In this document: positions 3,550 to 51,994 of the stretch, piece after piece | How the letters are laid out: each line of letters begins with the position of its first letter | Position numbering within the stretch: position 1 is the first letter of the stretch | IMG/VR virus record: IMGVR_UViG_3300047550_006186 | From: a virus | Strand: one strand, 5' to 3' | Length of the DNA stretch: 64,000 bases | Program-made: the position numbers and the translations under genes | Notes under the pieces: model-generated | The model's input: the letters and a program-made list of their open reading frames with translations, nothing else | What the model was told of the DNA's origin: nothing | Database searches by the model: none

Positions 3550-5652
3550 ATGAAGATCAATCAAGTTGTGGAAGACGTTGAGCGCGGCAGTGTCACACAG
3601 GAACGGGGCTTTAGTATTCAGGCCAATGCTAGGGCTTTCCAGATTCTCAGCAGCAACCTGTATTCTGACAAGATCACAGCAGTGATCCGTGAGCTCAGCT
3701 GTAATGCACTGGACAGTCATGTGGCTGCCGGCAAGACAGGTACACCTTTTGATGTTCATCTGCCCAATGCCCTGGAACCCTATTTCAGTGTGCAGGATTA
3801 TGGACTGGGACTCAGCCATGATCAGGTCATGAGCATCTATACAACCTACTTTGAAAGCACCAAGACCAACACCAACGAACTGATTGGTGGCCTGGGCCTG
3901 GGCAGCAAGAGCCCATTCAGTTACACCAGCAGCTTTGATGTTGTGAGTGTTCACAATGGTGTTTCTCGTAGCTATGCCATGTTCATCAACGAGGCTGGCA
4001 AGCCCAGTGTGGCATTCATGGGCGAGACACCCACTGATGCCCCCAATGGGGTCAAGGTCAGCATGCCTGTCAAGAGCACTGATTTTCAGGGCTTTCAGGA
4101 AAAGGCTGCACGAGTGTTCAAGTGGTTCAGCCACCGCCCAGTTGTGAGTGGCAGCAGCAGCTTTGTGATTCCTGAACTCAAGATCAATTGTGATATCCAG
4201 GGCCAGGGTTGGCGCCTGCAGGACGTGAGTTTTGATCGCTACTCAAGGCACCAGGCAATGGCCCTCATGGGCAATGTGGCCTATCCGCTCAATGCTGCTG
4301 TGATCAACACCAAGTTCCAGCAACTGCTTGCGTGGCCAATTATTATTGACTTTGCTATTGGCGAACTTGATATCAGCGCCAGCCGCGAAGACCTCAGCTA
4401 TGATCCAGTGACTGTGCAGGTTATTGAAACCAAGCTTGGTCAGATCATCAAGGAATTGGAGAAGCGCATCCAGGACAAGTTCAAGAATGCTGCTACACTG
4501 TGGGAAGCACGTCTGCTGTTGAAAAAGATGACCTCTGATCGAACCCTGAACGATATCCTGTATGTGATGGAGAGAGGTGGCTTCAGGGTCATGTGGAAGG
4601 GCGAGGAGGTCAGCCACCATCACATCAATTGGCACAAAATGTTTCTGGATGTTGATACTGATCCTCATCCGCCAGTTTATGACGTGAGTACTTTCAGCCG
4701 TGCTCGCTATTGTAGAGCTATTGAACCCACAGACAAAGTTGTGTTCATCCTCAAGGATGTGAGTGATACAAGCGCTCGATGCAAGCTGGCCTATTACAAT
4801 ACCCAGAAGCGAGCTTTTATGATTGAAGCTGCCATTGGCAATGACGCCACCAAGTGTCCTCAGGTTGCTCGTCTTCTCAAGCACATTGGTGATCCGCCCA
4901 CCATCCTGGGGAGCAGCCTCTCCAAGGCTCCTCGCAAGAGCATGAAGTTCAAGGGAATTGTTTGGACTGGCAACAGCAGGACATGGCAGCCTCGCAAGAG
5001 CGATAACTGGACTGGAGAGAAGGAGCTCCTCAGTAGCCAGGGTGGTTATTATGTGACCATCAGTGGTTTGGATCCAGTTTACATTGTGAGTGCCAAGGAG
5101 GAAAAGCAGCTGAACCTCAATGATATTGTCCACAGTGCCCAGGCATTGGGCATCCTTGCCAAGACAGATCAGGTTTGGGGCATCAACAAGACCAACAGCC
5201 GTCTGATCAAGGATGAACCCAAGTGGATCAATGTGTATGAGTTCGTGCAGAAGAAAGTGCTTGAGCTGATCAGCAATGGCAACACTGCTGACCTGGTTCA
5301 TGCTCGTGAACAGTATGAATTGATCAACACCAAGTTCTACACCAATCATGATGTGTGGACTCGTATGTTTGGCAATCATGACAACAGCTTGGGCAAGTTT
5401 GTGCGGGCTTGGAAGAATGCTGCGGTGGCAGGCAGCAAGATGGACCTGCGGGCATTGCGCACACTTGTCACAGTTTATGGAGTCGACCTGGAGGGGCGCA
5501 AGACTGTCAAAACAGAGAGCTTGATTGATATGTGGAGTCAGGCCGTCAAGGACTATCCCATGCTGGTCAAGTTTGAGCGTGATAGTAGCGGAGATATCTT
5601 TTGGCCACTGCTGGTTGATTACGTGAATTTTGTTGACATTACCAAGAAGTAA
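3550..5652 (+). CDS. rIIA: rIIA-like protein with N-terminal GHKL (HATPase_c) ATPase domain
   Basis: 700 aa; GHKL N-box ELSCNALDSH and G-rich loop GGLGLGSKSPF; size and position immediately upstream of an unmistakable rIIB homolog. Confidence 0.8.
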   Translation: MKINQVVEDVERGSVTQERGFSIQANARAFQILSSNLYSDKITAVIRELSCNALDSHVAAGKTGTPFDVHLPNALEPYFSVQDYGLGLSHDQVMSIYTTYFESTKTNTNELIGGLGLGSKSPFSYTSSFDVVSVHNGVSRSYAMFINEAGKPSVAFMGETPTDAPNGVKVSMPVKSTDFQGFQEKAARVFKWFSHRPVVSGSSSFVIPELKINCDIQGQGWRLQDVSFDRYSRHQAMALMGNVAYPLNAAVINTKFQQLLAWPIIIDFAIGELDISASREDLSYDPVTVQVIETKLGQIIKELEKRIQDKFKNAATLWEARLLLKKMTSDRTLNDILYVMERGGFRVMWKGEEVSHHHINWHKMFLDVDTDPHPPVYDVSTFSRARYCRAIEPTDKVVFILKDVSDTSARCKLAYYNTQKRAFMIEAAIGNDATKCPQVARLLKHIGDPPTILGSSLSKAPRKSMKFKGIVWTGNSRTWQPRKSDNWTGEKELLSSQGGYYVTISGLDPVYIVSAKEEKQLNLNDIVHSAQALGILAKTDQVWGINKTNSRLIKDEPKWINVYEFVQKKVLELISNGNTADLVHAREQYELINTKFYTNHDVWTRMFGNHDNSLGKFVRAWKNAAVAGSKMDLRALRTLVTVYGVDLEGRKTVKTESLIDMWSQAVKDYPMLVKFERDSSGDIFWPLLVDYVNFVDITKK

Positions 5653-5693: not shown

Positions 5694-7082
5694 ATGACTA
5701 TTCCGTATATTGTTACCAAGGATAGCGTGACCGTCATGTATAACGGTGTGACCACCACCGTCCGAGACGGTATGATCAACTACGCCAGCCTACGCGAAGC
5801 AATTCGCAACAAGGATTGGGATAGCATTCCCAATCTACTCAACCCTGCCCGTGCAGTTGAATCTTTTGGCAATGGTGCCATTGAGGTTCGTGACGGAGAG
5901 GTCTACTACCAGGGCGAAATCATGCGCAACGGGCTAACCCGTCGCATCCTGGAAATGGTGGGAGAGGGCTTTGACGCTGATCCGCTAACCAAGTTTCTAG
6001 GCAAGCTCATGGACAATCCCAGCAAAACTGCTGTGGATGAATTGTATTCTTGGCTTGAAGGCACCAACCTGCCCATCACAGAAGATGGTTGCTTTATGGC
6101 CTACAAGAAGGTGGGTGAAGATTATCTGGATTTCTATACTGGCAAGGTTCTCAACAAGCCTGCAGGGTTCATGACGGATGCGGATCTGGAATACATCAAG
6201 AACACACAGGGTGTGGTGAGTGTGGAAGTCACGGATGGTGTGACCACAGTCAGCATGCCACGCAACAAGGTTGATGACAACCGTGACCGCACCTGCAGCC
6301 AGGGCCTGCATTTCTGCAGCCTCAGTTACCTGCCCCACTATCATGGTGGACGTGGTCGCGTGCTGCTGGTCAAGGTTGATCCTGCAGATGTGGTGAGCAT
6401 TCCCAGCGATTACGACAATGCCAAGGGCCGTGCATGGCGATACCAGATTGTGGGCGAGCACACAGATGGTGAAACTCGTGAAGCCTACGCTACTCCTGTT
6501 GCCACACCTGATGGCAAGCCCACCTATGGACGCCAGTTTCTCACAGAGGATGTCAACACCCTGGTGCTGGGTGTGAACTTTGGCACCGAAGATCGCGCAA
6601 CCCTGGTGCGTGATATGATCGCAGATTGCAGTCACCAAGTAGGCACCAGCCGCACTGGAGAACAGGGTCGGGATGATGGTTTTGATGATGCCTGGAACAA
6701 GGCAGATGCAAACCTCAGCCGGTTTACTGGCAGCAACATGCGTGAGGCTGTGGAATATGCACAGGCATATTTTGAAGGCTACGACAAGTGCAATGGTTTT
6801 GCACCCCAGGTGCAGGTAAACAACACAGAGGCTCAAGATCAGGCCAATGTGTATTCATATGAAACCGTTGAGCAGCGTGATGAGATTGTCCGAGTGCTGA
6901 GCATGCCCATCAACAAGAATGGTGCTCGTCATGGATATGACAATGGCTATGACGATGGCCAGCAAGATGCTGAAAGTGACAAGCGAAATGGCCGATCCTT
7001 CAACCTAGAAGCTGCCATTCCAGGTGGCAAGAACTACCGAGACGGTTATATCAAAGCATATGTACTCCACTACTGCTGGTGA
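5694..7082 (+). CDS. rIIB: rIIB-like protein
   Basis: Strong similarity to T4 rIIB C-terminal core: ITEDGCFMAYKKV..., RTCSQGLHFCSLSYLPHY, RVLLVKVDPADVVSIPSDYDNAKGRAWRYQIV (T4: TQTCSRGLHVCSKSYIRHF...VKVHPRDVVSIPIDYNDAKMRTCQYEVV). Confidence 0.85.
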   Translation: MTIPYIVTKDSVTVMYNGVTTTVRDGMINYASLREAIRNKDWDSIPNLLNPARAVESFGNGAIEVRDGEVYYQGEIMRNGLTRRILEMVGEGFDADPLTKFLGKLMDNPSKTAVDELYSWLEGTNLPITEDGCFMAYKKVGEDYLDFYTGKVLNKPAGFMTDADLEYIKNTQGVVSVEVTDGVTTVSMPRNKVDDNRDRTCSQGLHFCSLSYLPHYHGGRGRVLLVKVDPADVVSIPSDYDNAKGRAWRYQIVGEHTDGETREAYATPVATPDGKPTYGRQFLTEDVNTLVLGVNFGTEDRATLVRDMIADCSHQVGTSRTGEQGRDDGFDDAWNKADANLSRFTGSNMREAVEYAQAYFEGYDKCNGFAPQVQVNNTEAQDQANVYSYETVEQRDEIVRVLSMPINKNGARHGYDNGYDDGQQDAESDKRNGRSFNLEAAIPGGKNYRDGYIKAYVLHYCW

Positions 7083-8125: not shown

Positions 8126-9925
8126 ATGATTGAACTGAATGACCCCACTGTAATTGCACATACTGACTCACAAGCATTGAACGTTTTGTTGGCAAAAATC
8201 CAAAGACCCATTCCTGATGAATCCAAATATTTGGAACGACTGGAGCAAGAGCTCAAAATAATAGATGAACAAAACTTCAGTCCACATTTTTTGAGAGTGT
8301 TGGAAGTTTTGGACCTTACCAAAGACATACCACACATCACTAGAGGCAGTGCAGGCAGTTCACTTGTTTGTTATCTACTAGGCATAACAGATGTTGATCC
8401 AGTCAAATATGACATTCCATTGGCTAGATTTTTGAACCCCCTGCGTGATGATTTGCCCGACATTGACATAGATTTTGGTCAAAAATTTCACAAAGAAGTA
8501 TTGGAACGTATCTATCGCCACTGGCCAGGTAGAGCTGCCCGCCTCAGCAACTACGTGAAATATCGTGAAAAAAGTGCCCAAAAAGAAGCATTGAAGAGAG
8601 TGTGTGGCATCAAGGGCAAAGCTGCCAACCAACACAAGCCAGAACACCTAGTGCCCAAACACAAACACAAGGAATGGAAAAATTTATCAGAAAGGTTGTT
8701 GGGCAAAAAGAAATGTATCAGCAAGCATCCTGGCGGTGTGATTGTTTTTGACCAACCGCCTGCCAAAAGTTTGTTGTTACAAAAAGACACCCAAATCTTG
8801 CTGGACAAATATGAGTGTGAAGATCTTGCGCATTTGAAAATCGACGTGCTCAGCAACAGAGGATTGAGTGTGCTGTGGGATTGTAGTGGTCAAGGTCCGT
8901 TTGAATACAACCATGAATGCGATCAGACCCTTGCCATGCTGGCAGCAGGCAACAGTTTTGGGATCATCCAAGGAGAATCTCCCGTGATGCGGCGAACACT
9001 TCGCGCTCTCAAACCTCAAACGGTGGATGATCTCACACTTGCCACAGCATTGATTCGTCCTGCTGCCTTGACTGGTAGACAAAAGGGTGTGTTTTTTAGA
9101 GAATGGATTGGACACAATAAACAGCCTGGTGCCCTCAAACACAAGGATGGATTGGTATTTGATGAAGATGCAATTGATTTGATCTGCAAGGTATTGGATG
9201 TGGATGAGTTTGAGGCTGACATGTATCGCCGCGGATTCGTCAAGAAAAATGAAGAGATGATGTTTCAATTTTTGGAGAAGATTGGCAACCATCCACGTAG
9301 AGAAGAGATAATGTATCTGCTCAAAAACATGGATGGTTTTGGACTATGCAAAGCCCACAGTGTGAATCTGGGTAGGTTGGTATATGCTCAAGCTTGGGAA
9401 AAACAGCACAATCCTCAAAAGTTTTGGTTGGCTGCTCTACAAAACGCATGCAGCATGTATAGACCCTGGGTGCATATTGAACACGCAAAATCAGCTGGCT
9501 GGCAAATACAGGGCAAGAAACGACCCTGGCTGGTCAAAAACAACATATTATACAATGAAAATTGGCAAGTTCCTTTGTTTGACAGCCATTGGGATCAATT
9601 GGCACACATGGGATTTTGGACACACAAGTCTTGGATACCAGGCACCTATTATCAACAAATGGGCACCACAGCAGCATTTTGTGGAATAATTGCTGCACAC
9701 AGAATTTATCATTGTGGCCAAGGAGAGTTTGTTACTTTTGCCACATTGGGCACAGGTGCTGGTGAATTTTTGGAAGTTGTTTTGCCAGGTATGATCAATG
9801 TCAAAAATACAGCTTTTGTGGAAGGCATGGGAGAAGTGGAAGTCAAAAACAACAACACTGTTATATATACTAGAACATTTGAAACATTGTCCACAAGAGA
9901 ACATGCTAAGCACCACGACAAGTGA
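8126..9925 (+). CDS. dnaE: Minimal DnaE-like (C-family) DNA polymerase catalytic core, lacking PHP and C-terminal accessory domains
   Basis: Matches Pol III alpha palm/fingers motifs: RGSAGSSLVCYLLGITDVDP (DnaE [20 protein letters not shown]), ARFLNPLRDDLPDIDIDF (ERFLNPERVSMPDFDVDF), KHPGGVIV, LKIDVLSNRGLSVL, DGFGLCKAHSVNLG; only 599 aa. Confidence 0.7.
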   Translation: MIELNDPTVIAHTDSQALNVLLAKIQRPIPDESKYLERLEQELKIIDEQNFSPHFLRVLEVLDLTKDIPHITRGSAGSSLVCYLLGITDVDPVKYDIPLARFLNPLRDDLPDIDIDFGQKFHKEVLERIYRHWPGRAARLSNYVKYREKSAQKEALKRVCGIKGKAANQHKPEHLVPKHKHKEWKNLSERLLGKKKCISKHPGGVIVFDQPPAKSLLLQKDTQILLDKYECEDLAHLKIDVLSNRGLSVLWDCSGQGPFEYNHECDQTLAMLAAGNSFGIIQGESPVMRRTLRALKPQTVDDLTLATALIRPAALTGRQKGVFFREWIGHNKQPGALKHKDGLVFDEDAIDLICKVLDVDEFEADMYRRGFVKKNEEMMFQFLEKIGNHPRREEIMYLLKNMDGFGLCKAHSVNLGRLVYAQAWEKQHNPQKFWLAALQNACSMYRPWVHIEHAKSAGWQIQGKKRPWLVKNNILYNENWQVPLFDSHWDQLAHMGFWTHKSWIPGTYYQQMGTTAAFCGIIAAHRIYHCGQGEFVTFATLGTGAGEFLEVVLPGMINVKNTAFVEGMGEVEVKNNNTVIYTRTFETLSTREHAKHHDK

Positions 9926-10020
9926 ACTACTGTTGGTTTTTAGGGCGTGGTAGTTCACTATGCGTTTCGCAGCAGCATATTTGAAAATTGGCTGAATTCG
10001 TATTTTGACATCAAAAAGAG

Positions 10021-10599: not shown

Positions 10600-10824
10600 A
10601 TGAAAGAAATGCAAATGCCAAAAGATGCATTTAATGTTGGCGACCGAGTCAATGTGGTTCGAACCCGTCACGGATGGTATGACGGAAGCTTGCAGGCAAC
10701 CGTGGTTTCCAGGCATCAACGAGACACAGGCACTTTTAGCTATATGGTTAGGGATCTGGATGGTGCCGTGCATGAGGTCAATCATACACGCGACATGTAT
10801 AAGTCTTTGGGCAACAACAGATGA
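10600..10824 (+). CDS. Hypothetical small protein (74 aa)
   Basis: ATG 11 nt downstream of promoter-proximal leader. Confidence 0.4.
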   Translation: MKEMQMPKDAFNVGDRVNVVRTRHGWYDGSLQATVVSRHQRDTGTFSYMVRDLDGAVHEVNHTRDMYKSLGNNR

Positions 10825-15801: not shown

Positions 15802-15814
15802 CATGCTGTGATGT

Positions 15815-15995
15815 GAACTATCACCCCCCCTCTAGGGCTGTAGCTGGCTGCTTGATCGTAGTGGCTGACAGCAGACCCCAATGAGTGAGAATACCTGTGA
15901 CCACATCCACAGGCGCAAGAGCCAGTTCCTTCCCCACATGATCTATATTCCACGGTTGATGTCCCCAGTTCTTGATGTTGATGGCTGCATATGAC
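15815..15995 (-). mobile_element. Solo right-end + 3' tnpB remnant of IS200/IS605-family element A
   Basis: gtgaactatcacc...ctagggctgtagctggctgcttgatcgtagtggctgaca...ccacaggcgc...tgatgtccccagtt matches RE/3' region of copies at 39711, 50165, 25004. Confidence 0.5.
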
Positions 15996-25003: not shown

Positions 25004-25581
25004 GTGAACTACCACGCCCTAAAGGTCTGTGGCTTCCTGCTTAATCGTAGTGGCTGACATCTCACCCCAATGAGTGAGAATATCTGTCATCACATCCACA
25101 GGCGCTTGGGGCAGTTCCTGCCCTGCATGATCTATTGTCCATTGTTGATGTCCCCAGTTGCGGATGTTCACTGCTGCATTCGTGTCCCTGTGCTGAGTGA
25201 TTCCACATTCATCGCAATGATATTCTCTTTGCTTGAGATCCATGTGACTTTTGCGGGTGCCACATGCACTACAGGTCTTGCTACTGGGTAGCCACTGATT
25301 GATCTTGACAAGATAGTGGCCTTGCATTTGGCATTTGTAGGCCAATGCACCAATCAACATAGCCCAACTGGCATCAGCTATGCACTTGGCTGCGGGCTTG
25401 CTTTTTCTTTTCATCTCATCAATTTTCAGTGTTTCAACTGACACCAGGTCATGTGATTTGGCTATTCTCGCACTTGTCTGATCCTATAGCGATATCGCTG
25501 TTTTATAAATCTATTTGTATAATCTATTCAAAAAGCCGCTATCCATCCAGGGGCTAAAGCACCCTGGCTTTCCGCGGCGGG
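25004..25581 (-). mobile_element. Internally deleted (about 580 bp) copy of IS200/IS605-family element A
   Basis: RE (gtgaactaccacgccctaaagg...), 3' 430 bp of tnpB and LE (ccgctatccatccagg...ttccgcggcggg) with junction tctgat|cctatagcgatatcgctg. Confidence 0.6.
25019..25444 (-). pseudogene. tnpB: TnpB C-terminal fragment (141 aa)
   Basis: About 90% identical to C-terminus of TnpB copies at 39727 and 50182 (zinc-finger CSACGTRKSH...CDECG). Confidence 0.6.
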
Positions 25582-25595
25582 AGATAAGTAATTGT

Positions 25596-28496: not shown

Positions 28497-28742
28497 ATGC
28501 GTAAACGTATTATGGGGTCTACCTCTGCTCAAGCCAAAAAACCTGCCAATAAAACTCTAGTGTATTGTACTCTCAATGATAGCAAATGCAAGGGACTGAT
28601 TGTTCTCAAAACTGAATATCAGCTCACAGTACAAATGCCCACTGGGTGTGTTTTGCACATGGTTCGCCCACAAGGACGCAAACTGTATGTGTGTTATGCA
28701 GGTCAACTGGAATTTGTCAGTGATGGATGGGCTACAACCTAG
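28497..28742 (+). CDS. Hypothetical small basic protein (81 aa)
   Basis: ATG in frame of ORF 28314..28742; preceded by perfect palindrome gtgcaatat-tat-atattgcac (28468-28488). Confidence 0.35.
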   Translation: MRKRIMGSTSAQAKKPANKTLVYCTLNDSKCKGLIVLKTEYQLTVQMPTGCVLHMVRPQGRKLYVCYAGQLEFVSDGWATT

Positions 28743-28783
28743 TGAACTACCACACCCTAATGGTGTGGTAGTTCACTCAGTGT
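28741..28783. repeat. GTGAACTACCAC palindromic repeat (15-bp perfect hairpin)
   Basis: gtgaactaccacacc-ctaat-ggtgtggtagttcac; family shared with IS element A right end. Confidence 0.6.
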
Positions 28784-30030: not shown

Positions 30031-30078
30031 GGTTGTCTCCGGAGAATTTGTAGGTTTTGTGAAGTTATTTATTTATTT

Positions 30079-30379
30079 CTGCGAGCGGAAGACCACTGGC
30101 TTGTCAAGCCAGTGGATGGATAGCGAGTGGATAAATTATTTTTGATATATTGCATTTCTTTCAATTTCACAGCATAAATAAGCTGTCACTTTAACAAGTG
30201 GACTAGGGCAGGAAGTGCCCAGTACGCCTGTGGAGTCCGATCAGACCTGTGGGGCTGGTGGTTGTGCTAGGACGCACATAAAACCCCAGAAATGGGGCAC
30301 GCGATAACCAAGCACACAAACCCCACGGGCAAGGACTACGACGCAGGAAGCTACAGTCCTTTAGGGCGTAGTACTTCAC
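30079..30379 (+). mobile_element. About 300-bp MITE related to IS element A (diverged LE + shared interior + RE)
   Basis: gcgagcggaagaccactgg...gccagtggatggatagcgag (LE-like), interior ggactagggcaggaagtgcc, RE cgcaggaagctacagtcctttagggcgtagtacttcac. Confidence 0.45.
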
Positions 30380-30438
30380 ATCGCTCAATTGACTGTGTTC
30401 GATTCACAGCAGACCCACCATTTTTTCATAAGTAGCTG

Positions 30439-31044
30439 ATGAACATTTGTGCATTGGCATTGGTGTTACTGCTGGATGTAAGCAGCAGTGTGACTCCCGA
30501 ACGTTATGCTTTACAAAAACAGGGGTTGTTGACAAGCTTTCAAGATCCCAGCATACAAAGATTGATGCTCAGTCAAAATCCTGGAGGCATGGCTGTGACA
30601 GTTTTTGAATGGAGCACAGGAGCACAACAGGTAATCCCCTGGCATCACATTCAAACTCCAACTGATGTGGAGAAATTTGTTGAGCAGATCAACAATTTAG
30701 ATAGAGCCCAAGTTGATGGAGTCACAGCCATAGGCGTGGCACTGGAAGCAGGTATTGCCAGCTTGGAACAAGCACCATGTGTGCCTGAAAGAAAAATACT
30801 GGATGTGAGTGGAGATGGTGCCAACAACAGCGGCATTGATCCATCGCACTTGCGAGACCAGGCCCAAACTCAAGGCATAACGATAAATGGTTTGCCAATT
30901 TTGAATCCAAATGAACCTGACCTTGAAATTCATTATAGGAAACAGGTTGTCACCATGGATGGTTTTGTGATAGCCAGCGAAGGGTTTGAAGATTTTGCTA
31001 GAGCATTGCGACGCAAACTCATACTGGAAATAGCTGGGCAATAA
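30439..31044 (+). CDS. DUF1194 / vWA-like domain protein
   Basis: LALVLLLDVSSSV (MIDAS-like DxSxS) and DVSGDGANNSG. Confidence 0.55.
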   Translation: MNICALALVLLLDVSSSVTPERYALQKQGLLTSFQDPSIQRLMLSQNPGGMAVTVFEWSTGAQQVIPWHHIQTPTDVEKFVEQINNLDRAQVDGVTAIGVALEAGIASLEQAPCVPERKILDVSGDGANNSGIDPSHLRDQAQTQGITINGLPILNPNEPDLEIHYRKQVVTMDGFVIASEGFEDFARALRRKLILEIAGQ

Positions 31045-31201: not shown

Positions 31202-31644
31202 GTATTACATATTTTCATTCATTTCGCAAGTGTTTGTATGCAATTATTAAAAACCAATAAAAGATACATATGATTACCTATTTGGCTGATTCCTTGAATT
31301 CAAGGAAATCAATTTAGACTACTTGATTCAGTTATAAATCATTGGGGTAGACGAAATCAATTCTGGCGAGTGGGCTTGGCCCAGCAACGGATAGAACATG
31401 CATGCGAAGAAAACGGCGTCCGGTTAACTCGCGTACATGCAGCATACACATCGCAAACTTGCAGTGCATGCGGGGTCAAACACAAGCAATCGCGCCAAGG
31501 CGAACGATTCTCGTGTTTGAGTTGTGGATATGAAGTAGATGCCGACTTGAATGGCGCTATCAATATCCGCAACAGAGGAGCATATAGTCCCTCTGTTAAA
31601 AAAATATAAGATCATTTATAGAAATATATGATCTCAATAACTAT
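31202..31644 (+). mobile_element. Internally deleted copy of IS200/IS605-family element B
   Basis: LE (gtattacatattttcattcatttcgcaag...) and RE (...aacagagggactatatgctcctctgtt...ctcaataactat) identical to element at 48641-50029 in inverse orientation; retains only last 79 codons of tnpB. Confidence 0.6.
31370..31609 (+). pseudogene. tnpB: TnpB C-terminal fragment (79 aa)
   Basis: 77/79 identical to C-terminus of ORF 48676..49794. Confidence 0.6.
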
Positions 31645-35177: not shown

Positions 35178-35190
35178 ATTACACTAGGTG

Positions 35191-35232
35191 TACTACTGTT
35201 GGTCTAAAGACCAACAGTAGTACACCGAAAAA
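35191..35232. repeat. Perfect 19-bp-stem palindrome (variant of GTGAACTAC repeat family)
   Basis: ggtgtactactgttggtct-aa-agaccaacagtagtacacc. Confidence 0.55.
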
Positions 35233-36694: not shown

Positions 36695-36707
36695 TATTGC
36701 TACTTAT

Positions 36708-37310
36708 TTATGCTTGTTCTGTAGAAACCGCATCAATTAGGCATTTTTTTGCGCTTTTTAGTACTTTGCGTCTATTGCTGTACATCTTCATTGAGAAATG
36801 ATGAATGATTGAAATTAGATCTTGTGTCAATTCAGTTTCAAACGGAGTTATCTCGGCGTCATTTATGACAACAATTTTTGTGTTATATCGATCGAATAGT
36901 CTGGTGAAATAATCAAAACCAAATCGAGTAAGTCGATCTCGATATGTCACATAGACTGTGTCTACATTACCGGACATAACTAGATCCAATAACTCATTGA
37001 ATCCTTTACGATTTTCGTTCATGCCGCTGGCTATATCACTGATCGTCTGAACTGGATATCCTTGTTTAATAACAAAGTCTTGCACCAATTGCTGTTGACT
37101 AATAAGATCAGACTCCTGTTTCTTGTCACTGACTCGAGTGTAAGCTACGTGTATCCTCGGTCCTGATGTTGATTTGATTTCTGGGTAATAGAGATAACTG
37201 CTCTTCCCGACCCTAATGAAGTCAACTGTGTTGTTAATTCGCCAGTTCCGCAAAGTCTGTTTGCTAATGGCATATTTTTTCATAAATTGGCGTGCTGTGA
37301 TATATTTCAT
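36708..37310 (-). CDS. tnpA: IS607-family serine recombinase (TnpA) with N-terminal MerR-like HTH
   Basis: MerR-like HTH (ISKQTLRNWRINN) + resolvase catalytic domain (AYTRVSDKKQ...VYVTYRDRLTRFG). Confidence 0.75.
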   Translation of the reverse strand: MKYITARQFMKKYAISKQTLRNWRINNTVDFIRVGKSSYLYYPEIKSTSGPRIHVAYTRVSDKKQESDLISQQQLVQDFVIKQGYPVQTISDIASGMNENRKGFNELLDLVMSGNVDTVYVTYRDRLTRFGFDYFTRLFDRYNTKIVVINDAEITPFETELTQDLISIIHHFSMKMYSNRRKVLKSAKKCLIDAVSTEQA

Positions 37311-37359
37311 ACTTGTATTTATAACTTTTTTGCGCTATAAATGCAAATAACAATATAAT

Positions 37360-39204: not shown

Positions 39205-39331
39205 GGATCTTCCTTGAGGGTTGACTTGAGTGAACTACCACGCCCTAAAAGGATATGTCTTCAACAAAAAGTCTACCATAAATATTTAGGAGATACACTC
39301 CCACATCAATGTTATCAATAGGTTAGCGCAA

Positions 39332-39710: not shown

Positions 39711-40996
39711 TGTGAACTACCACGCCCTAAAGGGCTGTGGCTTCCTGCTTCATCGTAGTGGCTGATATCTCACCCCAATGGGTGAGAATATCTGCCATCA
39801 CATCCACAGGCGCTTGGGGCAGTTCCTGCCCTGCATGATCTATTGTCCATTGTTGATGTCCCCAGTTGCGAATATTGATGGCTGCATTCGTGTCTCTGTG
39901 CTGTGTTGTGCCGCAGGCGTCGCAATGGTATTCTCGCTGAGCGAGGTCCATGTGACTTTTGCGGGTGCCACATGCACTACAGGTCTTGCTGCTGGGTAGC
40001 CACTGATTGATCTTGACAAGATGATGACCTTGCCTTTGGCACTTGTAGGCCAATGCACCAATCAACATAGCCCAATCCGCATCTGCTATGGCCTTGGCTG
40101 TGGCCTTGCTCTTGCGTCTCATCTCATCAATTTTCAGTGTTTCAACACACACCAGGTCATGTGATTTGGCTATTCTCGCACTTGTCTGATGTATATGGTT
40201 AGTTCTTTGGCAGCGAACCAGATCATGGGTTCGGGCCAGTTTTTGTTTTGCTTTTGTTCTATTCCTACTTGCTTTTTGTTTTCTGGATAGCTTGCGTTGT
40301 AACTGTTTGATACGTGCTTGTTTCTTCCCCAATGGCTTGGGATTTGCAACTAGCTCACCAGTTGATAGTGCTGTGAATTTGCTGTTGACATCCACACCCA
40401 CTGGGTTGGTTATGTTTTGAACCAATGGCAATTCAGTCACATCAACCACAAATGAGGCATACCAACCACCTGGTGTTTGAATCACAGTCACACCCTTAAA
40501 CTTGGGAAGATCTCGATGGAGTACAATCTTGATATCACCAATCTTGGGTAGATATAGCTTGTTGTTGTCAACTCTCACGTTTTGTTGATATCTAAAACTT
40601 ATAGGAGTTGTGTATTTGCTTTTGAACCGTGGGAATCCAGCACCTGTCTTTTTCATATTTTTCAGTGCTGTATCCAAGTCACTTATGCTCTGTTGTAGTA
40701 CTTGACTGTAGGTATCTGATAACCATTTGTTGTGTTTCTTCAATTCAGTCAGTTGTTTGCACATATCAAACTGCCAAACAAACTTTTTAGTATTGGCATA
40801 TTCATCAATGTTGATCTTGAGGAAATGATTGTATAGATATCGCACTGCTCCGCCCACAGAACGCATGTGTTGTTCCTGTTGTGGGGTTGGATAAATTCTA
40901 TAGCGATATCGCTGTTTCATAAATCAATTGATATAATCTATTCAAAAAGCCGCTATCCATCCAGGGCCTAAAGGCGCCTGGCTTTCCGCGGCGGGA
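39711..40996 (-). mobile_element. IS200/IS605-family element A, copy 1 (tnpB only, no tnpA)
   Basis: RE gtgaactaccacgccctaaagggctgtggcttcctgcttcatcgtagtggctgatatctcacc; LE ...ccgctatccatccagggcctaaaggcgcctggctttccgcggcggg; near-identical to copies at 50165 and 63009. Confidence 0.75.
39727..40920 (-). CDS. tnpB: TnpB (IS605 OrfB family, RuvC-like + Zn finger)
   Basis: 397 aa; MKQRYRYRIYPT N-terminus, C-terminal CSACG...CDACG zinc finger; 3 near-identical copies. Confidence 0.85.
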   Translation of the reverse strand: MKQRYRYRIYPTPQQEQHMRSVGGAVRYLYNHFLKINIDEYANTKKFVWQFDMCKQLTELKKHNKWLSDTYSQVLQQSISDLDTALKNMKKTGAGFPRFKSKYTTPISFRYQQNVRVDNNKLYLPKIGDIKIVLHRDLPKFKGVTVIQTPGGWYASFVVDVTELPLVQNITNPVGVDVNSKFTALSTGELVANPKPLGKKQARIKQLQRKLSRKQKASRNRTKAKQKLARTHDLVRCQRTNHIHQTSARIAKSHDLVCVETLKIDEMRRKSKATAKAIADADWAMLIGALAYKCQRQGHHLVKINQWLPSSKTCSACGTRKSHMDLAQREYHCDACGTTQHRDTNAAINIRNWGHQQWTIDHAGQELPQAPVDVMADILTHWGEISATTMKQEATAL

Positions 40997-41301
40997 GATA
41001 ATTATCAATAACTATGCAGGTGCAGCATAGCGGCTATTGCGCCACGTCACCAACGTGACTTTCATGGGTTGGAGACCCATCGTCTGCTCCACTCTTTTCT
41101 ATCTTAAATAGTTGCATGAAAATCCATGAACTGCTCAAAGCCCCAACTATTAGAAGCGTGACCACTCGCAGTGGGCAGATTGATCGTCGCCGCGCAGAAA
41201 GGGTGGAAGATCCCAGGGGATATTTTGCCAAGGCCAGCAGTCCTCTTATGCCCAAACGCAAAAAATAGATATTTCTCTCAAGGTTTCCTGTGTCTTACCT
41301 C

Positions 41302-41610
41302 CTGCCGCGGAAAGCCAGGCGCCTATAGCCCCTGGAGGGATAGCGGCTTGTGACACAACTATTTTTTTTTGAATCTGGTTGCATTTGTGTTAACCTCTAT
41401 GTATAAACAATATTAGTGATGTAGCAAGAGTCCCAACGGGCTTGGGATATCCGGACAGCAATACCGCAGGGACTAGGGCAGGAAGTGCCACGAGTCCGTA
41501 AAAAATATCGCCAGTGGACCAGAACACACACCAATGAATAAGTCCATTGGCTAAAGGTGAATTGGAATCTAGCAGGAAGCCACAGCCCTTTAGGGCGTGT
41601 GGTACTTCAC
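41302..41610 (+). mobile_element. About 310-bp MITE derived from IS element A (LE + short interior + RE)
   Basis: cctgccgcggaaagccaggcgcc...ggatagcgg (LE) ... ggactagggcaggaagtgcc ... agcaggaagccacagccctttagggcgtgtggtacttcac (RE). Confidence 0.5.
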
Positions 41611-41688
41611 AGTAGAGACACTTGACTTGGTCTACCAACAACTGTTGTTGAATACAGTTCAATTTTTTTAAAATGAAAGGAAACTACA

Positions 41689-42189
41689 ATGAATTTTCGT
41701 GAACTAGCACTAGCTGCTATTGCAACTCTTGCCCTGACTATGACCCATGCAGTTGCTGAGCCGTTGAAGGGTGTCTATGTGGGCGCTAATTTGGGCACAA
41801 CCATGCAGGATGCCAATCGTGGCATGATGGGTGCCACGATTGGTTATCAATTCTGCAACAATTTTGCAGTGGAGGCTACCTATGACTACAATCAGGTCAC
41901 TGGTAGTCCCAACAATGCACAGATGCTGATGGTTAACGCAGTGACTGGCTATCCCAACAGCAGCCCGTTCACACCCTATGTGTTGGTGGGAACTGGTGTG
42001 GGTTGGAATGCAGCAGGAAACACAACCAGCAACTCAGCACTGGGTGTGTGGGATGTGGGCGCAGGCTTCAAGGTAGCTATCTCTGACCGGCTGATCCTGG
42101 ACAATCGTTATCGTTATGTGGCTCCATATAATGCTGCCAGCGGACGTGATGCTCAGGTGATCACCACAGGTATCAACTACAAGTTCTGA
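41689..42189 (+). CDS. Outer-membrane beta-barrel protein (OmpA-like/OmpW-like 8-strand barrel)
   Basis: Signal peptide, alternating amphipathic beta-strands, aromatic girdle, C-terminal ...GINYKF. Confidence 0.6.
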   Translation: MNFRELALAAIATLALTMTHAVAEPLKGVYVGANLGTTMQDANRGMMGATIGYQFCNNFAVEATYDYNQVTGSPNNAQMLMVNAVTGYPNSSPFTPYVLVGTGVGWNAAGNTTSNSALGVWDVGAGFKVAISDRLILDNRYRYVAPYNAASGRDAQVITTGINYKF

Positions 42190-48640: not shown

Positions 48641-50029
48641 ATAGTTATTGAGATCATATATTTCTATAACTGATCTTATATTTTTTTAACAGAGGGACTA
48701 TATGCTCCTCTGTTGCGGATATTGATAGCGCCATTCAAGTGGGCATCTACTTCATATCCACAACTCAAACACGAGAATCTTTCGCCTTGGCGTGATTGCT
48801 TGTGTTTGACCCCGCATGCACTGCAAGTTTGCGATGTGTATGCTGCATGTACGCGAGTTAACCGGACGCCGTTCTCTTCGCATGCATGTTCTATCCTTTG
48901 CTGGGCCAAGCCCACTCGCCAGAATTGATTTCGTCTACCCCATTTGTTACCTTGCTTGATTTCACTCAAATCTTCCATGACCAAATGGCTGAGTTGATCC
49001 CAAGGTATATCGTTTTTGATGGAGTAGTTTATTTGGTTTTTGAGTTCAGTTCTTGCCCTTGCATGAGATTTGCTGCGTTGCTTGCGACGGGCAATAACTT
49101 CCAATATGTCTTTAATTGGTCTACCAGTTGTATGGGTAGTTTCTATGTTGCCGTTGGAACAAGTGACCAACTTGTTTCTGCCCATGTCCACACCCATGAT
49201 GGCCTGGTTGCATCGCAAGGCTACATCTTTCACAAAATAAATTCCTAGACTACCATCTGAATTAACACGCAAACAATTGGTTTTCATGACAAAACCACGT
49301 CGCATTAGGTCTTGCATGTGACGTGTGGGTGTGAATGGGATGAAATAACTACCACGAGGAAATGATGTGATCTTGATCCAGTGACTGGCAATCTTGCTTG
49401 TTTTGTTGGGTTGTATGTCAATAAATCTTGAATCTAGCTCAATGTTCACTGAGTTAATGTCAATGGACAAGCTTTTGTTGTTCCATTTGTCTAATATTTC
49501 TTGTTGGTATTTTTGTAGGTTGCTGGCTTTTTGAGCCAATTTAACTTTCTCTTGAATTGATCTGACCACTGCACTGGCTTGTTTGGCACACACCTGGCTC
49601 AACCGAGATGGCAATTGTATCTGATCAGTAACGTCTTTGTTCGCAAATTTGGTTATTTTATCTTGATATAACTGGTGATCAACTAGTTTTTGTAGTTCTT
49701 GTCTATAGATATCAAACGGCTGCATCAACATCAAGTGTTTGATGTGATTGGCTAGTTTGGGTCTGTAGGTTGATATCCTAGTAATCTTTGGCATTTGTTG
49801 TATTATTTATGTTTTATCATCAATCAATTGATGATTATTAGTAATGTCACACATATGATAATATATTTTAATTTAAGGCCCATTTAATGGTTTATAACTG
49901 AATCAAGTAGTCTAAATTGATTTCCCTGAATTCAAGGAGTCAGCCAAATAGGTAATCATATGTGTAATTTATTGGTTTTTAATAATTGCATACAAACACT
50001 TGCGAAATGAATGAAAATATGTAATACTT
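48641..50029 (-). mobile_element. IS200/IS605-family element B (tnpB only), full copy
   Basis: Ends defined by comparison with deleted copy at 31202-31644. Confidence 0.7.
48676..49794 (-). CDS. tnpB: TnpB (IS605 OrfB family), second subfamily
   Basis: 372 aa; C-terminal TSQTCSACG...CLSCG zinc finger + RuvC-like motifs. Confidence 0.8.
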   Translation of the reverse strand: MPKITRISTYRPKLANHIKHLMLMQPFDIYRQELQKLVDHQLYQDKITKFANKDVTDQIQLPSRLSQVCAKQASAVVRSIQEKVKLAQKASNLQKYQQEILDKWNNKSLSIDINSVNIELDSRFIDIQPNKTSKIASHWIKITSFPRGSYFIPFTPTRHMQDLMRRGFVMKTNCLRVNSDGSLGIYFVKDVALRCNQAIMGVDMGRNKLVTCSNGNIETTHTTGRPIKDILEVIARRKQRSKSHARARTELKNQINYSIKNDIPWDQLSHLVMEDLSEIKQGNKWGRRNQFWRVGLAQQRIEHACEENGVRLTRVHAAYTSQTCSACGVKHKQSRQGERFSCLSCGYEVDAHLNGAINIRNRGAYSPSVKKI

Positions 50030-50164: not shown

Positions 50165-51451
50165 TAGTGAACTACCACGCCCTAAAGGGCTGTGGCTTCC
50201 TGCTTCATCGTGCTGGCTGATATCTCACCCCAATTGGCGAGAATATCTGCCATCACATCCACAGGCGCTTGGGGCAGTTCCTGCCCTGCATGATCTATTG
50301 TCCATTGTTGATGTCCCCAGTTGCGGATGTTCACTGCTGCATTCGTGTCCCTGTGCTGAGTGGTTCCGCAATGATCACAATGATATTCTCTTTGCTTGAG
50401 ATCCATGTGACTTTTGCGTGCACCACATGAGGAGCAGGTCTTGCTACTGGGTAGCCACTGATTGATCTTGACAAGATGATGGCCTTGCCTTTGACATTTG
50501 TAGGCCAATGCACCAATCAACATAGCCCAGCCAGCATCAGCTATACACTTGGCTGCGGGCTTGCTTTTTCTTTTCATCTCATCAATTTTCAGTGTTTCAA
50601 CACACACCAGGTCATGTGATTTGGCTATTCTCGCACTTGTCTGATGTATATGGTCGAGTCTTTGGCAGCGAACCAGATCATAGGTTCTTGCCAGTCGTGT
50701 TTTTGCTTTCAGTCTATTCCTACTTGCTTTTTGTTTTCTGGATAGCTTGCGTTGTAACTGTTTGATACGTGCTTGTTTCTTCACCAATGGCTTGGGATTT
50801 GCAACTAGCTCACCAGTTGATAGTGCTGTGAATTTGCTGTTGACATCCACCCCTACCGGGTTGGTTATGTTTTGAACCAATGGCAGTTCCAAGACATCAA
50901 CCACAAATGAGGCATACCAACCACGTGGTGTTTGAATCACAGTCACACCCTTGAATGTGGGTAGATCTCGATGGAGCACAATCTTGATATCACCAATCTT
51001 GGGTAGATATAGCTTGTTGTTGTCAACTCGAACATTTTGTTGATATCTAAAGCTAACAGGAGTTGTGTATTTGCTTTTGAATTTGGGGAATCCAGCACCT
51101 GTTTTCTTGATATTTTTCAGTGCTGTATCCAAGTCACTTATGCTTTGTTGTAGCACTTGACTGTAGGTATCTGATAACCACGGGTTGTGTTTCTTCAATT
51201 CAGTCAGTTGTTTGCACATGTCAAACTGCCAAACAAATTTTTTGTTCAATTGATATTCATCAATGTTTACACGTAGGAAATGGTTGTATAGATATCGCAC
51301 TGCTCCGCCCACAGAACGCATCTGTTGTTCTTGAGCAGGGGTTGGATAAATCCTATAGCGATATCGCTGTTTCATAAATCTATTTATATAATCTATTCAA
51401 ACAGCCGCTATCCATCCAGGGCCTAAAGGCGCCTGGCTTTCCGCGGCGGGA
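50165..51451 (-). mobile_element. IS200/IS605-family element A, copy 2
   Basis: Same RE/LE as copy at 39711-40996. Confidence 0.75.
50182..51375 (-). CDS. tnpB: TnpB (element A copy 2)
   Basis: About 93% identical to ORF 39727..40920. Confidence 0.85.
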   Translation of the reverse strand: MKQRYRYRIYPTPAQEQQMRSVGGAVRYLYNHFLRVNIDEYQLNKKFVWQFDMCKQLTELKKHNPWLSDTYSQVLQQSISDLDTALKNIKKTGAGFPKFKSKYTTPVSFRYQQNVRVDNNKLYLPKIGDIKIVLHRDLPTFKGVTVIQTPRGWYASFVVDVLELPLVQNITNPVGVDVNSKFTALSTGELVANPKPLVKKQARIKQLQRKLSRKQKASRNRLKAKTRLARTYDLVRCQRLDHIHQTSARIAKSHDLVCVETLKIDEMKRKSKPAAKCIADAGWAMLIGALAYKCQRQGHHLVKINQWLPSSKTCSSCGARKSHMDLKQREYHCDHCGTTQHRDTNAAVNIRNWGHQQWTIDHAGQELPQAPVDVMADILANWGEISASTMKQEATAL

Positions 51452-51994
51452 GGTAACTCCATTTGTATTGAGTGGCAAAGTTGATCTACCACCACATGAA
51501 TACCATCCATAAACTTTAAGTAGGTTCAAATCCATTATGCTAGGGTAGCACTGGACATCAAATTTGAATGCAGCAAGCGAGTAATAAATCTCCTTGAAGG
51601 TTCTTGTAGGTATTTCATTATTATTGTTGAATCTAGATAGTATAGTCTTTCTTTGTTTATTCCTACTTTGTTGCGATCGATGAATATTGGTAATCCGTGA
51701 GGCGCATGAATTACTGCAATATTTCGCTTTCGACTTGTGAAAGGATTCCCAAGTGATACTGTCTCCGCAAGCAATGCATTTGTTAGGATCCATATCATAG
51801 ATTAGTTTTTGTTGAGCATAAGATGCTTGTGATCTGATTTTCTGATTGCGAGCATTCTCTCTATTGCAGCAGGTCAAATTACAATATTTCTTTGATCCCT
51901 TGGGCAAAGGTTTACCACATTCTCTATAATGGCAAAATAAGATATCTTGAGTTGTTGACTGATCAAAAAATTGTGAGTAAATATTATCAGACAT
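51380..51994 (-). CDS. Zinc-ribbon-rich protein whose 3' end runs into the IS left end (C-terminal tail encoded by LE)
   Basis: Multiple CxxC pairs; C-terminal RRGKPGAFRPWMDSGCLNRLYK is the translation of the IS LE. Confidence 0.4.
   Translation of the reverse strand: MSDNIYSQFFDQSTTQDILFCHYRECGKPLPKGSKKYCNLTCCNRENARNQKIRSQASYAQQKLIYDMDPNKCIACGDSITWESFHKSKAKYCSNSCASRITNIHRSQQSRNKQRKTILSRFNNNNEIPTRTFKEIYYSLAAFKFDVQCYPSIMDLNLLKVYGWYSCGGRSTLPLNTNGVTSRRGKPGAFRPWMDSGCLNRLYK

Follow-up and report, generated by a model that had tools for sequence, protein, structure and literature searches.

The 64-kb window analysed here, that is, the whole 64,000-nucleotide stretch of IMG/VR record IMGVR_UViG_3300047550_006186, is a T4-like phage genome, with rIIA at 3550-5652 and rIIB at 5694-7082 (PHROG, E 1e-131 and 2e-69, respectively) and with genes for NAMPT, a sigma-70-type factor, a Pol III alpha fragment, and four tRNAs. 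[quoted passage not shown] Each keeps a left-end hairpin next to a TTAY target, a promoter-like site with a NATAAATA-like box, and a scaffold of ~190 nt that ends at the right boundary (Table 1). Judged from their sequences, the MITEs are likely to be stand-alone genes for an omega-RNA, used in trans by the nuclease TnpB for retention or homing.

Alongside the MITEs, the window holds three tnpB elements of the same family (E1, E2, and E4) and an internal-deletion derivative, E3, which has the appearance of a simple deletion MITE of the resident element. The resident TnpB is homologous to ISDra2 TnpB (8EXA, E 1e-50) and keeps the GVD, VE, and RD motifs in an alignment to a designed TnpB homologue (9yyg), and its homologues in GenBank phages are all less than 60% identical. 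E1 is a candidate supplier of TnpB in trans to the MITEs, and its own omega-RNA of 120 nt folds more stably than shuffled sequences (z -5.86). No tnpA was found in the 64-kb window. An autonomous element of the same family, with left end, tnpA (Y1_Tnp, E 6e-37), tnpB, and right end, lies at 2950-4696 of L012, an IMG/VR contig of a related phage from a sample shared with most B-type copies, and is a candidate trans-mobiliser of the MITEs.

The original prediction placed the MITEs at 30079-30379 and 41302-41610; both right ends are exact, while the left ends lie 1-2 nt further out, at ~30078 and ~41300. A TTAY(N) motif of 4 or 5 nt stands 5' of every left end examined, including those of E1 (TTATC), E2 (TTACC), E3 (TTATC), E4 (TTACG), L032 (TTAC), and L012 (TTACA), and neither MITE is flanked by a direct repeat that could represent a target-site duplication. 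The right-end motif that had been proposed is real, as GCAGGAAGCYACAGYCCTTTAGGGCGT occurs five times in the window against 0 expected, in the two MITEs on the plus strand and in three tnpB-bearing or tnpB-derived elements on the minus strand. That the left ends are also common to the MITEs and the TnpB element is true of MITE B, which matches the left ends of E1, E2, E3, and E4 at 88-93% identity over 54-56 nt, and not of MITE A, which has a variant left end with the hairpin CCACTGGCTTGTCAAGCCAGTGG, also present in L023 and L005. As had been claimed, neither MITE has coding capacity, only short ORFs (open reading frames) that start with TTG or GTG or cross a boundary. The ORFs at 30203..30388 (- strand, 61 aa) and 41390..41662 (- strand, 90 aa) share a TTG start and continue past the right end into flanking DNA, the second is interrupted by one- and two-nt indels among B copies, and changes in an ATG-start ORF of the A-type copies are, by inspection, mostly non-synonymous. 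With no tnpB in either element, the MITEs are stand-alone derivatives and not canonical omega-RNA loci overlapping a tnpB gene.

Table 1. Features of the two MITEs and of the resident tnpB elements in the 64-kb window.
Feature	Position	Strand	Remarks
MITE A (W_A), A-type PATE, whole	30078..30379	+	two more A-type copies; identity drops to chance exactly at the right end
A target/TAM-like (target-adjacent motif) sequence TTATT (TTAY+N)	30073..30077	+	directly 5' of MITE A
A left-end subterminal hairpin, variant	30093..30115	+	CCACTGGCTTG-T-CAAGCCAGTGG, then conserved ATGGATAGCGA; self inverted match
A promoter-like site	30150..30180	+	TTGCAT 30150-30155, 17 nt, CATAAATA 30173-30180, toward right end
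A-type scaffold, predicted stand-alone omega-RNA-like, ~195 nt	30185..30379	+	fold -75 kcal/mol, z -3.46
A stem-1 hairpin GGGCA-GGAAG-UGCCC	30206..30220	+	loop GGAAG is the predicted pseudoknot 5' strand; homologous to GGGCAGGAACUGCCC in tnpB 3' ends
A stem-2 5' strand CCUGUGGAGUCC	30227..30238	+	pairs with 30333-30347 in single-sequence and alignment folds
A stem-2 3' strand GGACU...GCAGG	30333..30347	+	single-sequence and alignment folds
A stem 4 CUACAGUCC-UUUA-GGGCGUAG and tail UACUUCAC	30351..30379	+	also the right-end DNA hairpin
A 16-nt guide-position flank	30380..30395	+	putative, from its position
MITE B (W_B), B-type PATE, whole	41300..41610	+	five more B-type copies in other flanks
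B target/TAM-like motif TTACC	41295..41299	+	directly 5' of MITE B
B left-end subterminal hairpin	41315..41335	+	CCAGGCGCC-UAUA-GCCCCUGG, then AGGGATAGCGG
B promoter-like site	41379..41409	+	TTGCAT 41379-41384, 17 nt, TATAAACA 41402-41409
B-type scaffold, predicted stand-alone omega-RNA-like, ~196 nt	41415..41610	+	fold -71.3 kcal/mol, z -4.5
B stem-1/pseudoknot motif GGGCAGGAAGUGCC	41476..41489	+	
B stem-2 5' strand CCAGUGGACCAG	41511..41522	+	pairs with 41562-41576
B stem-2 3' strand UUGGAAUCUAGCAGG	41562..41576	+	
B stem 4 CCACAGCCC-UUUA-GGGCGUGUGG and tail UACUUCAC	41580..41610	+	2-nt insertion in stem 4
B guide-position flank	41611..41626	+	putative, from its position
E1, tnpB-only IS605-family element	39712..40997	-	tnpB 39727-40920; Pfam OrfB_IS605, TNB, and HTH (helix-turn-helix) domains
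E2, second full tnpB-only element	50167..51452	-	tnpB 50182-51375
E3, internal-deletion derivative	25004..25582	-	left end, first ~30 nt of tnpB, and last ~470 nt including omega-RNA
E4, third tnpB element	63008..64000	+	cut off by window end

Central to our reading is the homology of the MITE interiors to the omega-RNAs linked to tnpB. The two interiors share a 20-nt motif, GGACTAGGGCAGGAAGTGCC, which occurs exactly twice in the 64 kb, at 30200-30219 and 41470-41489, both on the plus strand, with 0 occurrences expected. It had been described as the MITEs' own, a description that the tnpB genes contradict, as in their 3' ends the homologous position is occupied by GGGCAGGAACTGCCCC...CGCCTGTGGA: the motif recurs with one base changed in the 3' end of every tnpB gene in the window. 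Three unrelated metagenomic tnpB genes (L025, L027, and L030) contain exactly GGGCAGGAAGTGCCC...GCCTGTGGAG, in frame and coding for GQEVP...PVE. E1 to E3 read GGGCAGGAACUGCCCC-AAGCG-CCUGUGGA, and the MITEs read GGGCAGGAAGUGCC(C)...CCUGUGGA. A comparison with the tnpB genes of the window and with unrelated metagenomic tnpB genes yields a set of core motifs common to the MITEs and the tnpB 3' ends, namely GGGCAGGAA(C/G)UGCCC, CCUGUGGA (conserved in all scaffold types), GCAGGAAGCC, a hairpin with a UUUA loop, and (G/C)UUCAC. The order of parts is also the same in all scaffold types, from a hairpin with a GGAAx loop through CCUG(U) to the terminal UUUA-loop hairpin and an 8-nt tail ending in xUUCAC, and CCUG(U) pairs with the CAGG of GCAGGAAGCC, enclosing a variable central domain. 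The interior motif is thus inherited from the tnpB 3' end, not new to the MITEs, and corresponds, as predicted from these motifs, to the stem-1/pseudoknot core of a TnpB omega-RNA. No pairing was found that would explain why the GCAGGAAG of the interior looks like the GCAGGAAG of the right end.

In the omega-RNA of ISDra2 TnpB (Karvelis et al., 2021), positions -5U to -3C form a pseudoknot with an upstream G-A-A, with flanking contacts at -6 and -2, and the remainder consists of a long-range stem 2, a dispensable distal stem 3, and a stem 4 with UUUA at -20 to -17 (Nakagawa et al., 2023, PMC10097598). The MITE interiors map onto this structure motif by motif (GGAAx strand, stem 2, stem 4 with UUUA, and tail xUUCAC); like the ISDra2 scaffold of ~116-120 nt, theirs end at the transposon right end, and the UUUA loop lies at -20 to -17 in W_A and E1 and at -22 to -19 in W_B. 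There are also differences. Stem 1 is a tight hairpin here, with the pseudoknot strand in its 5-nt loop, whereas the stem-1 strands of ISDra2 lie ~20 nt apart, and the TAM, TTGAT in ISDra2, is TTAY in the MITEs. Moreover, the tnpB transcript is the source of the ISDra2 omega-RNA, which overlaps the 3' end of that gene, whereas MITE RNAs, having no tnpB, would need a promoter of their own.

Covariance searches are consistent with this assignment. The model R1, built from nine tnpB-linked omega-RNAs only and giving rough E-values (short calibration), matched W_B at 41499-41610 (+; 33 bits, E 4.6e-5) and W_A at 30284-30379 (+; 27.4 bits, E 6.5e-4), both matches ending at the right end, and the next matches outside IS elements had E above 0.3. 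The omega-RNA of E3 scored 141 bits with the same model. No Rfam family reached its gathering threshold on either MITE. The best match below threshold was to HPnc0580 (RF02269), on the stem-1/pseudoknot part of W_A (22.3 vs 37 bits, E 0.12-0.18); other such matches (RsaOG, CRISPR-DR12, RAGATH-18, and mir-2968) were treated as noise.

The MITEs had been regarded as two copies of one element. Outside their ends and the 20-nt motif, however, the interiors of W_A and W_B are unrelated, which rules out a single family, and the MITEs belong to two, A-type and B-type, the latter with a family-specific 60-nt 5' module in its scaffold. Pattern scans of phage and metagenome contigs found further copies of both: L021 (IMG/VR) and L032 (metagenome) are A-type (n=3 with W_A), and L003, L005, L019, L020, and L022, all from IMG/VR and mostly from one sample, are B-type (n=6 with W_B). 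All nine sit in different flanking DNA, and conservation stops exactly after ...UUCAC in every copy. Neither MITE has a DNA match in GenBank phages, and neither family occurs in 185,579 representative genomes (GTDB), in which only two exact right-end motif matches were found. These lie at contig ends of two unrelated metagenome-assembled genomes, L001 (Patescibacteria, 234-258) and L002 (Opitutaceae, 5493-5517), and possibly reflect phage contamination or a shared host. Simple deletion of resident tnpB elements was ruled out as the origin of the MITEs, as E3 differs and the A and B central domains are unmatched in the fetched tnpB 3' ends. IMG/VR sequences considered as parental tnpB genes with a GGAAG-type A or B scaffold (L035-L042) proved to be unrelated coding sequences.

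One A-type copy, at 4315-4650 of L021, departs from the others at its left end, where the first ~14 nt are replaced by the 10-mer AATCCTGGCA, which stands directly behind the TTAC target and recurs 3' of the right end. Elements of the IS200/IS605 group make no target duplication, and the repeated 10-mer therefore looks like a scar of repair or template switching.

Both MITEs contain a promoter-like site directed at the right end, and the check for an outward-facing promoter that the original prediction called for found it in nine of nine copies. TTGCAT is invariant among them, the spacer varies in sequence, and 15-17 nt further on stands a TATAAATA-like box, exact in L020 and L022 and otherwise varying among the copies (the forms seen are TATAAATA, TATAAACA, TATAATTA, CATAAATA, TATTAATA, and TACTAATA). 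The conserved RNA begins 4-6 nt past the box. The site may be of sigma-70 or of T4-late type, TATAAATA or NATAAATA being the T4 late-promoter consensus. The arrangement TTGCATTT-17-TATAAATA also precedes the phage ORF 36708-37310, and the promoter of the MITEs may imitate one of the phage's native promoter classes.

Boxes of these kinds are found elsewhere in the window. TATAAATA or NATAAATA lies 5-20 nt upstream of the tnpB starts of E2 (51381-51388, -), E4 (63071-63078, +), and a second tnpB family (49804-49811, -), as well as upstream of phage ORFs, including at 36705-36712 (-) and 37316-37323 (-). The -35-like box of the MITEs, TTGCATTT, stands upstream of phage ORFs at 10601-10614 (-) and 37339-37346 (-), with the full TTGCATTT-17-TATAAATA arrangement at 37346.

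The predicted RNA structure was examined by comparing single-sequence folds with shuffles (Table 1) and by following base changes among copies, and the outcome of the covariation check was mixed, with support from stem 4, from the pseudoknot position (to a moderate degree), and from the A family and none from the B family. The base after GGAA and the tail position -6 are C:G in 10 of 10 tnpB-type scaffolds (GGAAC with GUUCAC) and G:C in eight of 11 GGAAG-type scaffolds (with CUUCAC), and L027 and L030 likewise pair by inspection. The A family, with three sequences, shows three compensatory pair changes in three helices, a number reached by 13 of 500 shuffles, and one of these changes falls inside the A-specific domain. 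In the B family, five one-sided changes in stem 2 always keep pairing, and variable columns are enriched in unpaired positions (p 0.002, with a structure predicted from the same alignment). A long-range stem 2 around a variable stem 3 is predicted in all three scaffold types, with CCUG/CAGG invariant and with only one-sided, pair-preserving changes in the stem-2 extensions. Because of a private GU insertion, the single-sequence fold of W_B departs from the family consensus, and we therefore relied on the alignment fold.

The suggestion that the interiors specify a functional small RNA, not inert debris, is thus supported computationally, by their conservation, their ISDra2-like architecture, the R1 matches, and the promoter-like site, and the scaffolds probably borrow TnpB made elsewhere. 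We infer transcription, TnpB loading, cleavage, and homing along the following lines. A transcript begun at the internal promoter would extend beyond the scaffold, and the adjoining ~16 nt of flank would serve as the guide. TnpB from intact elements of the same family, such as E1 and E2, would bind this RNA in trans, and the complex would cut DNA in which TTAY is followed by the guide sequence, which is to say the same locus without the MITE, be it the donor site after excision by TnpA or the allele of a co-infecting phage. Recombinational repair would then restore or copy the MITE, and transposition itself would depend on the Y1 TnpA of an autonomous copy with tnpA and tnpB, such as that of L012.

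Several observations weigh against this reading. The central domains of A and B are family-specific and differ from the resident tnpB omega-RNA, and neither the fetched 3' ends nor IMG/VR yielded a tnpB gene whose scaffold is of A or B type, so that compatibility with the resident TnpB is argued from the shared core only. A generic sigma-70 scan called neither MITE site, because the -10 ends in A, and we therefore name the site promoter-like only; TTGCAT matches the -35 sequence TTGACA at three of six positions, and NATAAATA is not enriched in the window (16 seen vs ~15 expected). With regard to structure, the pseudoknot pairing is broken in L003, L020, and L021, and its covariation concerns a single position in phylogenetically related sequences. 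The six B copies show no double compensatory changes, and stems 1 and 2, being invariant in that family, are uninformative. Stem 4 doubles as the DNA hairpin for TnpA, and its covariation thus cannot separate RNA from DNA function. The R1 E-values are rough, as given above. Lastly, MITE A, with its variant left end and a right end of the standard type, may have lost its mobility, and no empty site was found for either MITE, the viral contigs containing no close relatives of the flanking genes (among the fetched contigs, none exceeds 78% identity to the phage backbone).

The position of the MITEs relative to phage genes offers a different explanation, in which each MITE is a portable promoter or 5' leader that drives or modulates the gene downstream of its right end, the scaffold being incidental. 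In eight of the nine copies, the nearest sizeable ORF on the right side is co-oriented and starts at most ~130 nt from the right end or overlaps it; a gene for a DUF1194/VWA (von Willebrand factor A) protein (30439-31044) begins 60 nt downstream of W_A, and one for an outer membrane protein beta-barrel (41689-42189) 78 nt downstream of W_B. No such bias is seen for the tnpB elements, E1 and E3 being convergent with the genes next to them, and the promoter-like site is conserved. Yet a portable promoter leaves unexplained why there should be a ~190-nt scaffold with an omega-RNA core and pair-preserving changes, better conserved than the promoter spacer. Insertion by IS608 and ISDra2 is strand-specific, into the lagging-strand template, and the bias could stem from such insertion or from selection against antisense transcription. 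We consider this explanation unlikely as a full account of the MITEs, although promoter donation to the downstream gene is a plausible additional or alternative effect and would be compatible with stand-alone omega-RNA genes as a side effect.

Conservation along the elements bears on another possibility, that the MITEs are young deletion or recombination derivatives of IS605-family elements, inert and only seemingly conserved by recency. The RNA segment is 83-95% identical among copies, which is little divergence, decayed right-end fragments are abundant in the window (15808-15990, 62208-62326, and 39230-39249), and the lack of double compensatory changes in the B family would also fit. However, identity depends on the segment within the same copies. 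Mean pairwise identity in the B family is 0.49 in the left end, 0.86 in the promoter region, 0.89 in the RNA, and 0.23-0.28 in the flanks, and the corresponding values for the A family are 0.44, 0.63, 0.91, and 0.27-0.37. If only the termini had been preserved, the proposed function would have lost its footing; the reverse is seen, with the RNA segment better conserved than the left end in seven further copies. In addition, the A copies join one RNA module to three different left ends (the variant hairpin of W_A, a truncated end in L021, and the standard end in L032), the -35 box is invariant amid varying spacers, variable columns gather in loops of the structure predicted from the same alignment, and the scaffolds are not deletion products of resident tnpB elements, from which the one true derivative, E3, differs. 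An independent lineage is built in the same way, from a left-end hairpin, a promoter-like site, and a minimal scaffold. Taken together, these points make inert debris improbable.

That lineage is represented by a ~300-bp protein-less element with a left-end-like hairpin at 700-1050 of L024 and an identical one in L034, both from other metagenomes. It has TTGACT-17-GATAAA and a minimal scaffold of 92 nt, in which the core motifs are again found and the pseudoknot pairing is G:C, and the design of promoter plus omega-RNA recurs outside this phage group.

Stem 4 raises the question of whether the interior acts as DNA alone, that is, as a cis element needed for recognition or strand transfer by TnpA. 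Across 15 right ends, both partners change in seven of its nine pairs, pairing holds in 93% of cells, and none of 500 shuffles matches this. The stem doubles as the right-end DNA hairpin, and the left and right hairpins of the main subfamily are alike (CCAGGCGCC-TTTA-GGCCCTGG and CCACAGCCC-TTTA-GGGCGTGG), in keeping with a DNA-level role. In IS608-type transposition, however, subterminal hairpins and a few adjacent bases suffice, whereas here ~190 nt and a promoter-like site are conserved, and the covariation between GGAAx and the tail, which spans 115-170 nt, fits the RNA pseudoknot of the ISDra2 structure. A role in DNA alone is therefore very improbable. As for an exapted guide RNA with a fixed target, serving a nuclease-dead, TldR-like TnpB or phage-host warfare, a stand-alone guide-RNA gene with its own promoter is indeed the layout of exapted systems, but the idea is hardly credible here, given that the guide-position flanks differ in all nine copies and have no second match in the window, that the resident TnpB retains its RuvC D/E/D motifs, and that transposon ends and TTAY targets are kept; a TldR-type system would have a fixed guide shared by its copies, a matching genomic target, and a nuclease-dead partner, and diverse flanks of this sort fit a mobile element, not an exapted regulator.

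Elements of this kind are not unprecedented, and the two MITEs are new examples of a type already described. According to Meers et al. (2023, preprint PMC10055086), it is common for a PATE to encode an omega-RNA on which TnpB acts in trans. Like the PATEs of Geobacillus stearothermophilus, the MITEs contain no protein genes, keep the left and right ends of their family, and live with co-resident tnpB-only elements and one source of tnpA. In contrast to that case, the replicon here is a T4-like phage, the A and B scaffolds differ from that of the co-resident tnpB (B with its extra 5' module), a dedicated promoter-like site is conserved, and function is predicted. The mini-IS605 of Helicobacter pylori carries a non-coding RNA, HPnc0580 (Rfam RF02269; PMC6531487), and, like the MITEs, is a non-autonomous IS605 derivative with a non-coding RNA. 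Its Rfam consensus, CUAGCGCAGGAAGUGCGC...CCUGUAGGG, shares with W_A a GGAAG-loop hairpin and CCUGU downstream of it, the stem showing a compensatory swap of G-C to C-G; the match covers the 5' half only, below the gathering score, and the host and the remaining sequence are unrelated. A functional analogy, and only that, may be drawn with the free-standing homing endonucleases of T4-like phages (seg/mob; PMC13565253), in that both would be selfish elements that spread in co-infection by cutting alleles that lack them; unlike the endonuclease genes, the MITEs encode no protein, and target recognition would be RNA-guided and in trans.

If the RNAs are indeed made and loaded into TnpB, the guide-RNA part of an OMEGA system (the name stands for obligate mobile element-guided activity) would persist and spread without its nuclease, and would do so inside a lytic T4-like phage, in which co-infection and hyper-recombination would favour RNA-guided homing. 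The scaffold occurs in two natural forms, A, in which the stem-3 domain is enlarged, and B, which has a 5' extension; they show which parts can be replaced (stem 3 and the 5' region) and which are fixed (pseudoknot, stem 2, stem 4, and tail). Annotators also gain a recipe for recognising such cassettes and for skipping the spurious ORFs that lie over them.

It is tempting to go further and picture the A and B cassettes as orphan guide-RNA genes with no cognate tnpB, modular in build (a shared promoter, with swapped central domains and left ends), that hitch-hike as RNA only and home among T4-like phages through borrowed TnpB. In such a case, TnpB would be directed to cut cassette-free alleles in co-infecting phages and T4-type recombination would copy the cassette, a form of "intronless homing", and guide and nuclease would be naturally uncoupled, as in the path toward CRISPR. 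We regard this more elaborate picture as doubtful.

Smaller pieces derived from IS right ends are also scattered through the window. A solo 20-nt copy of exactly positions -20 to -1, TTTAGGGCGTGGTAGTTCAC, at 39230-39249 (-), amounts to the "crRNA-like" (CRISPR RNA-like) half of an omega-RNA, and solo tails of this kind fit the orphan guide-RNA picture. Perfect palindromes built from the right-end tail occur twice, with GTGAACTACCACACC-CTAAT-GGTGTGGTAGTTCAC immediately behind the stop codon of an ORF and GGTGTACTACTGTTGGT-CTAAAG-ACCAACAGTAGTACACC separating convergent ORFs; the palindrome pieces lie at 28742-28777 and 35189-35225, and a chimeric back-to-back pair lies at 9921-9958.

The second TnpB family of the window comprises a 372-aa ORF at 48676-49794 (-), with TNB as its only Pfam domain, and a ~300-bp copy of its 3' end and right end at 31343-31644 (+), 1 kb downstream of MITE A. 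Both pieces are 95-98% identical to positions 13689-14252 of L022, and the shorter one may be another nuclease-less right-end or omega-RNA fragment. As a partner of the MITEs this family was ruled out, its right end being unrelated.

Two further ORFs may be mentioned. A Cys-rich ORF of 204 aa at 51380-51994 (-), with no Pfam match, crosses the TTACC target and terminates inside the left end of E2, and E2 thus appears to be inserted in the 3' end of a phage gene. An ORF of 843 aa at 58961-61492 (+) combines major-vault-protein shoulder, vault-repeat, and SPFH/Band-7 domains, a set that is unusual for a phage.

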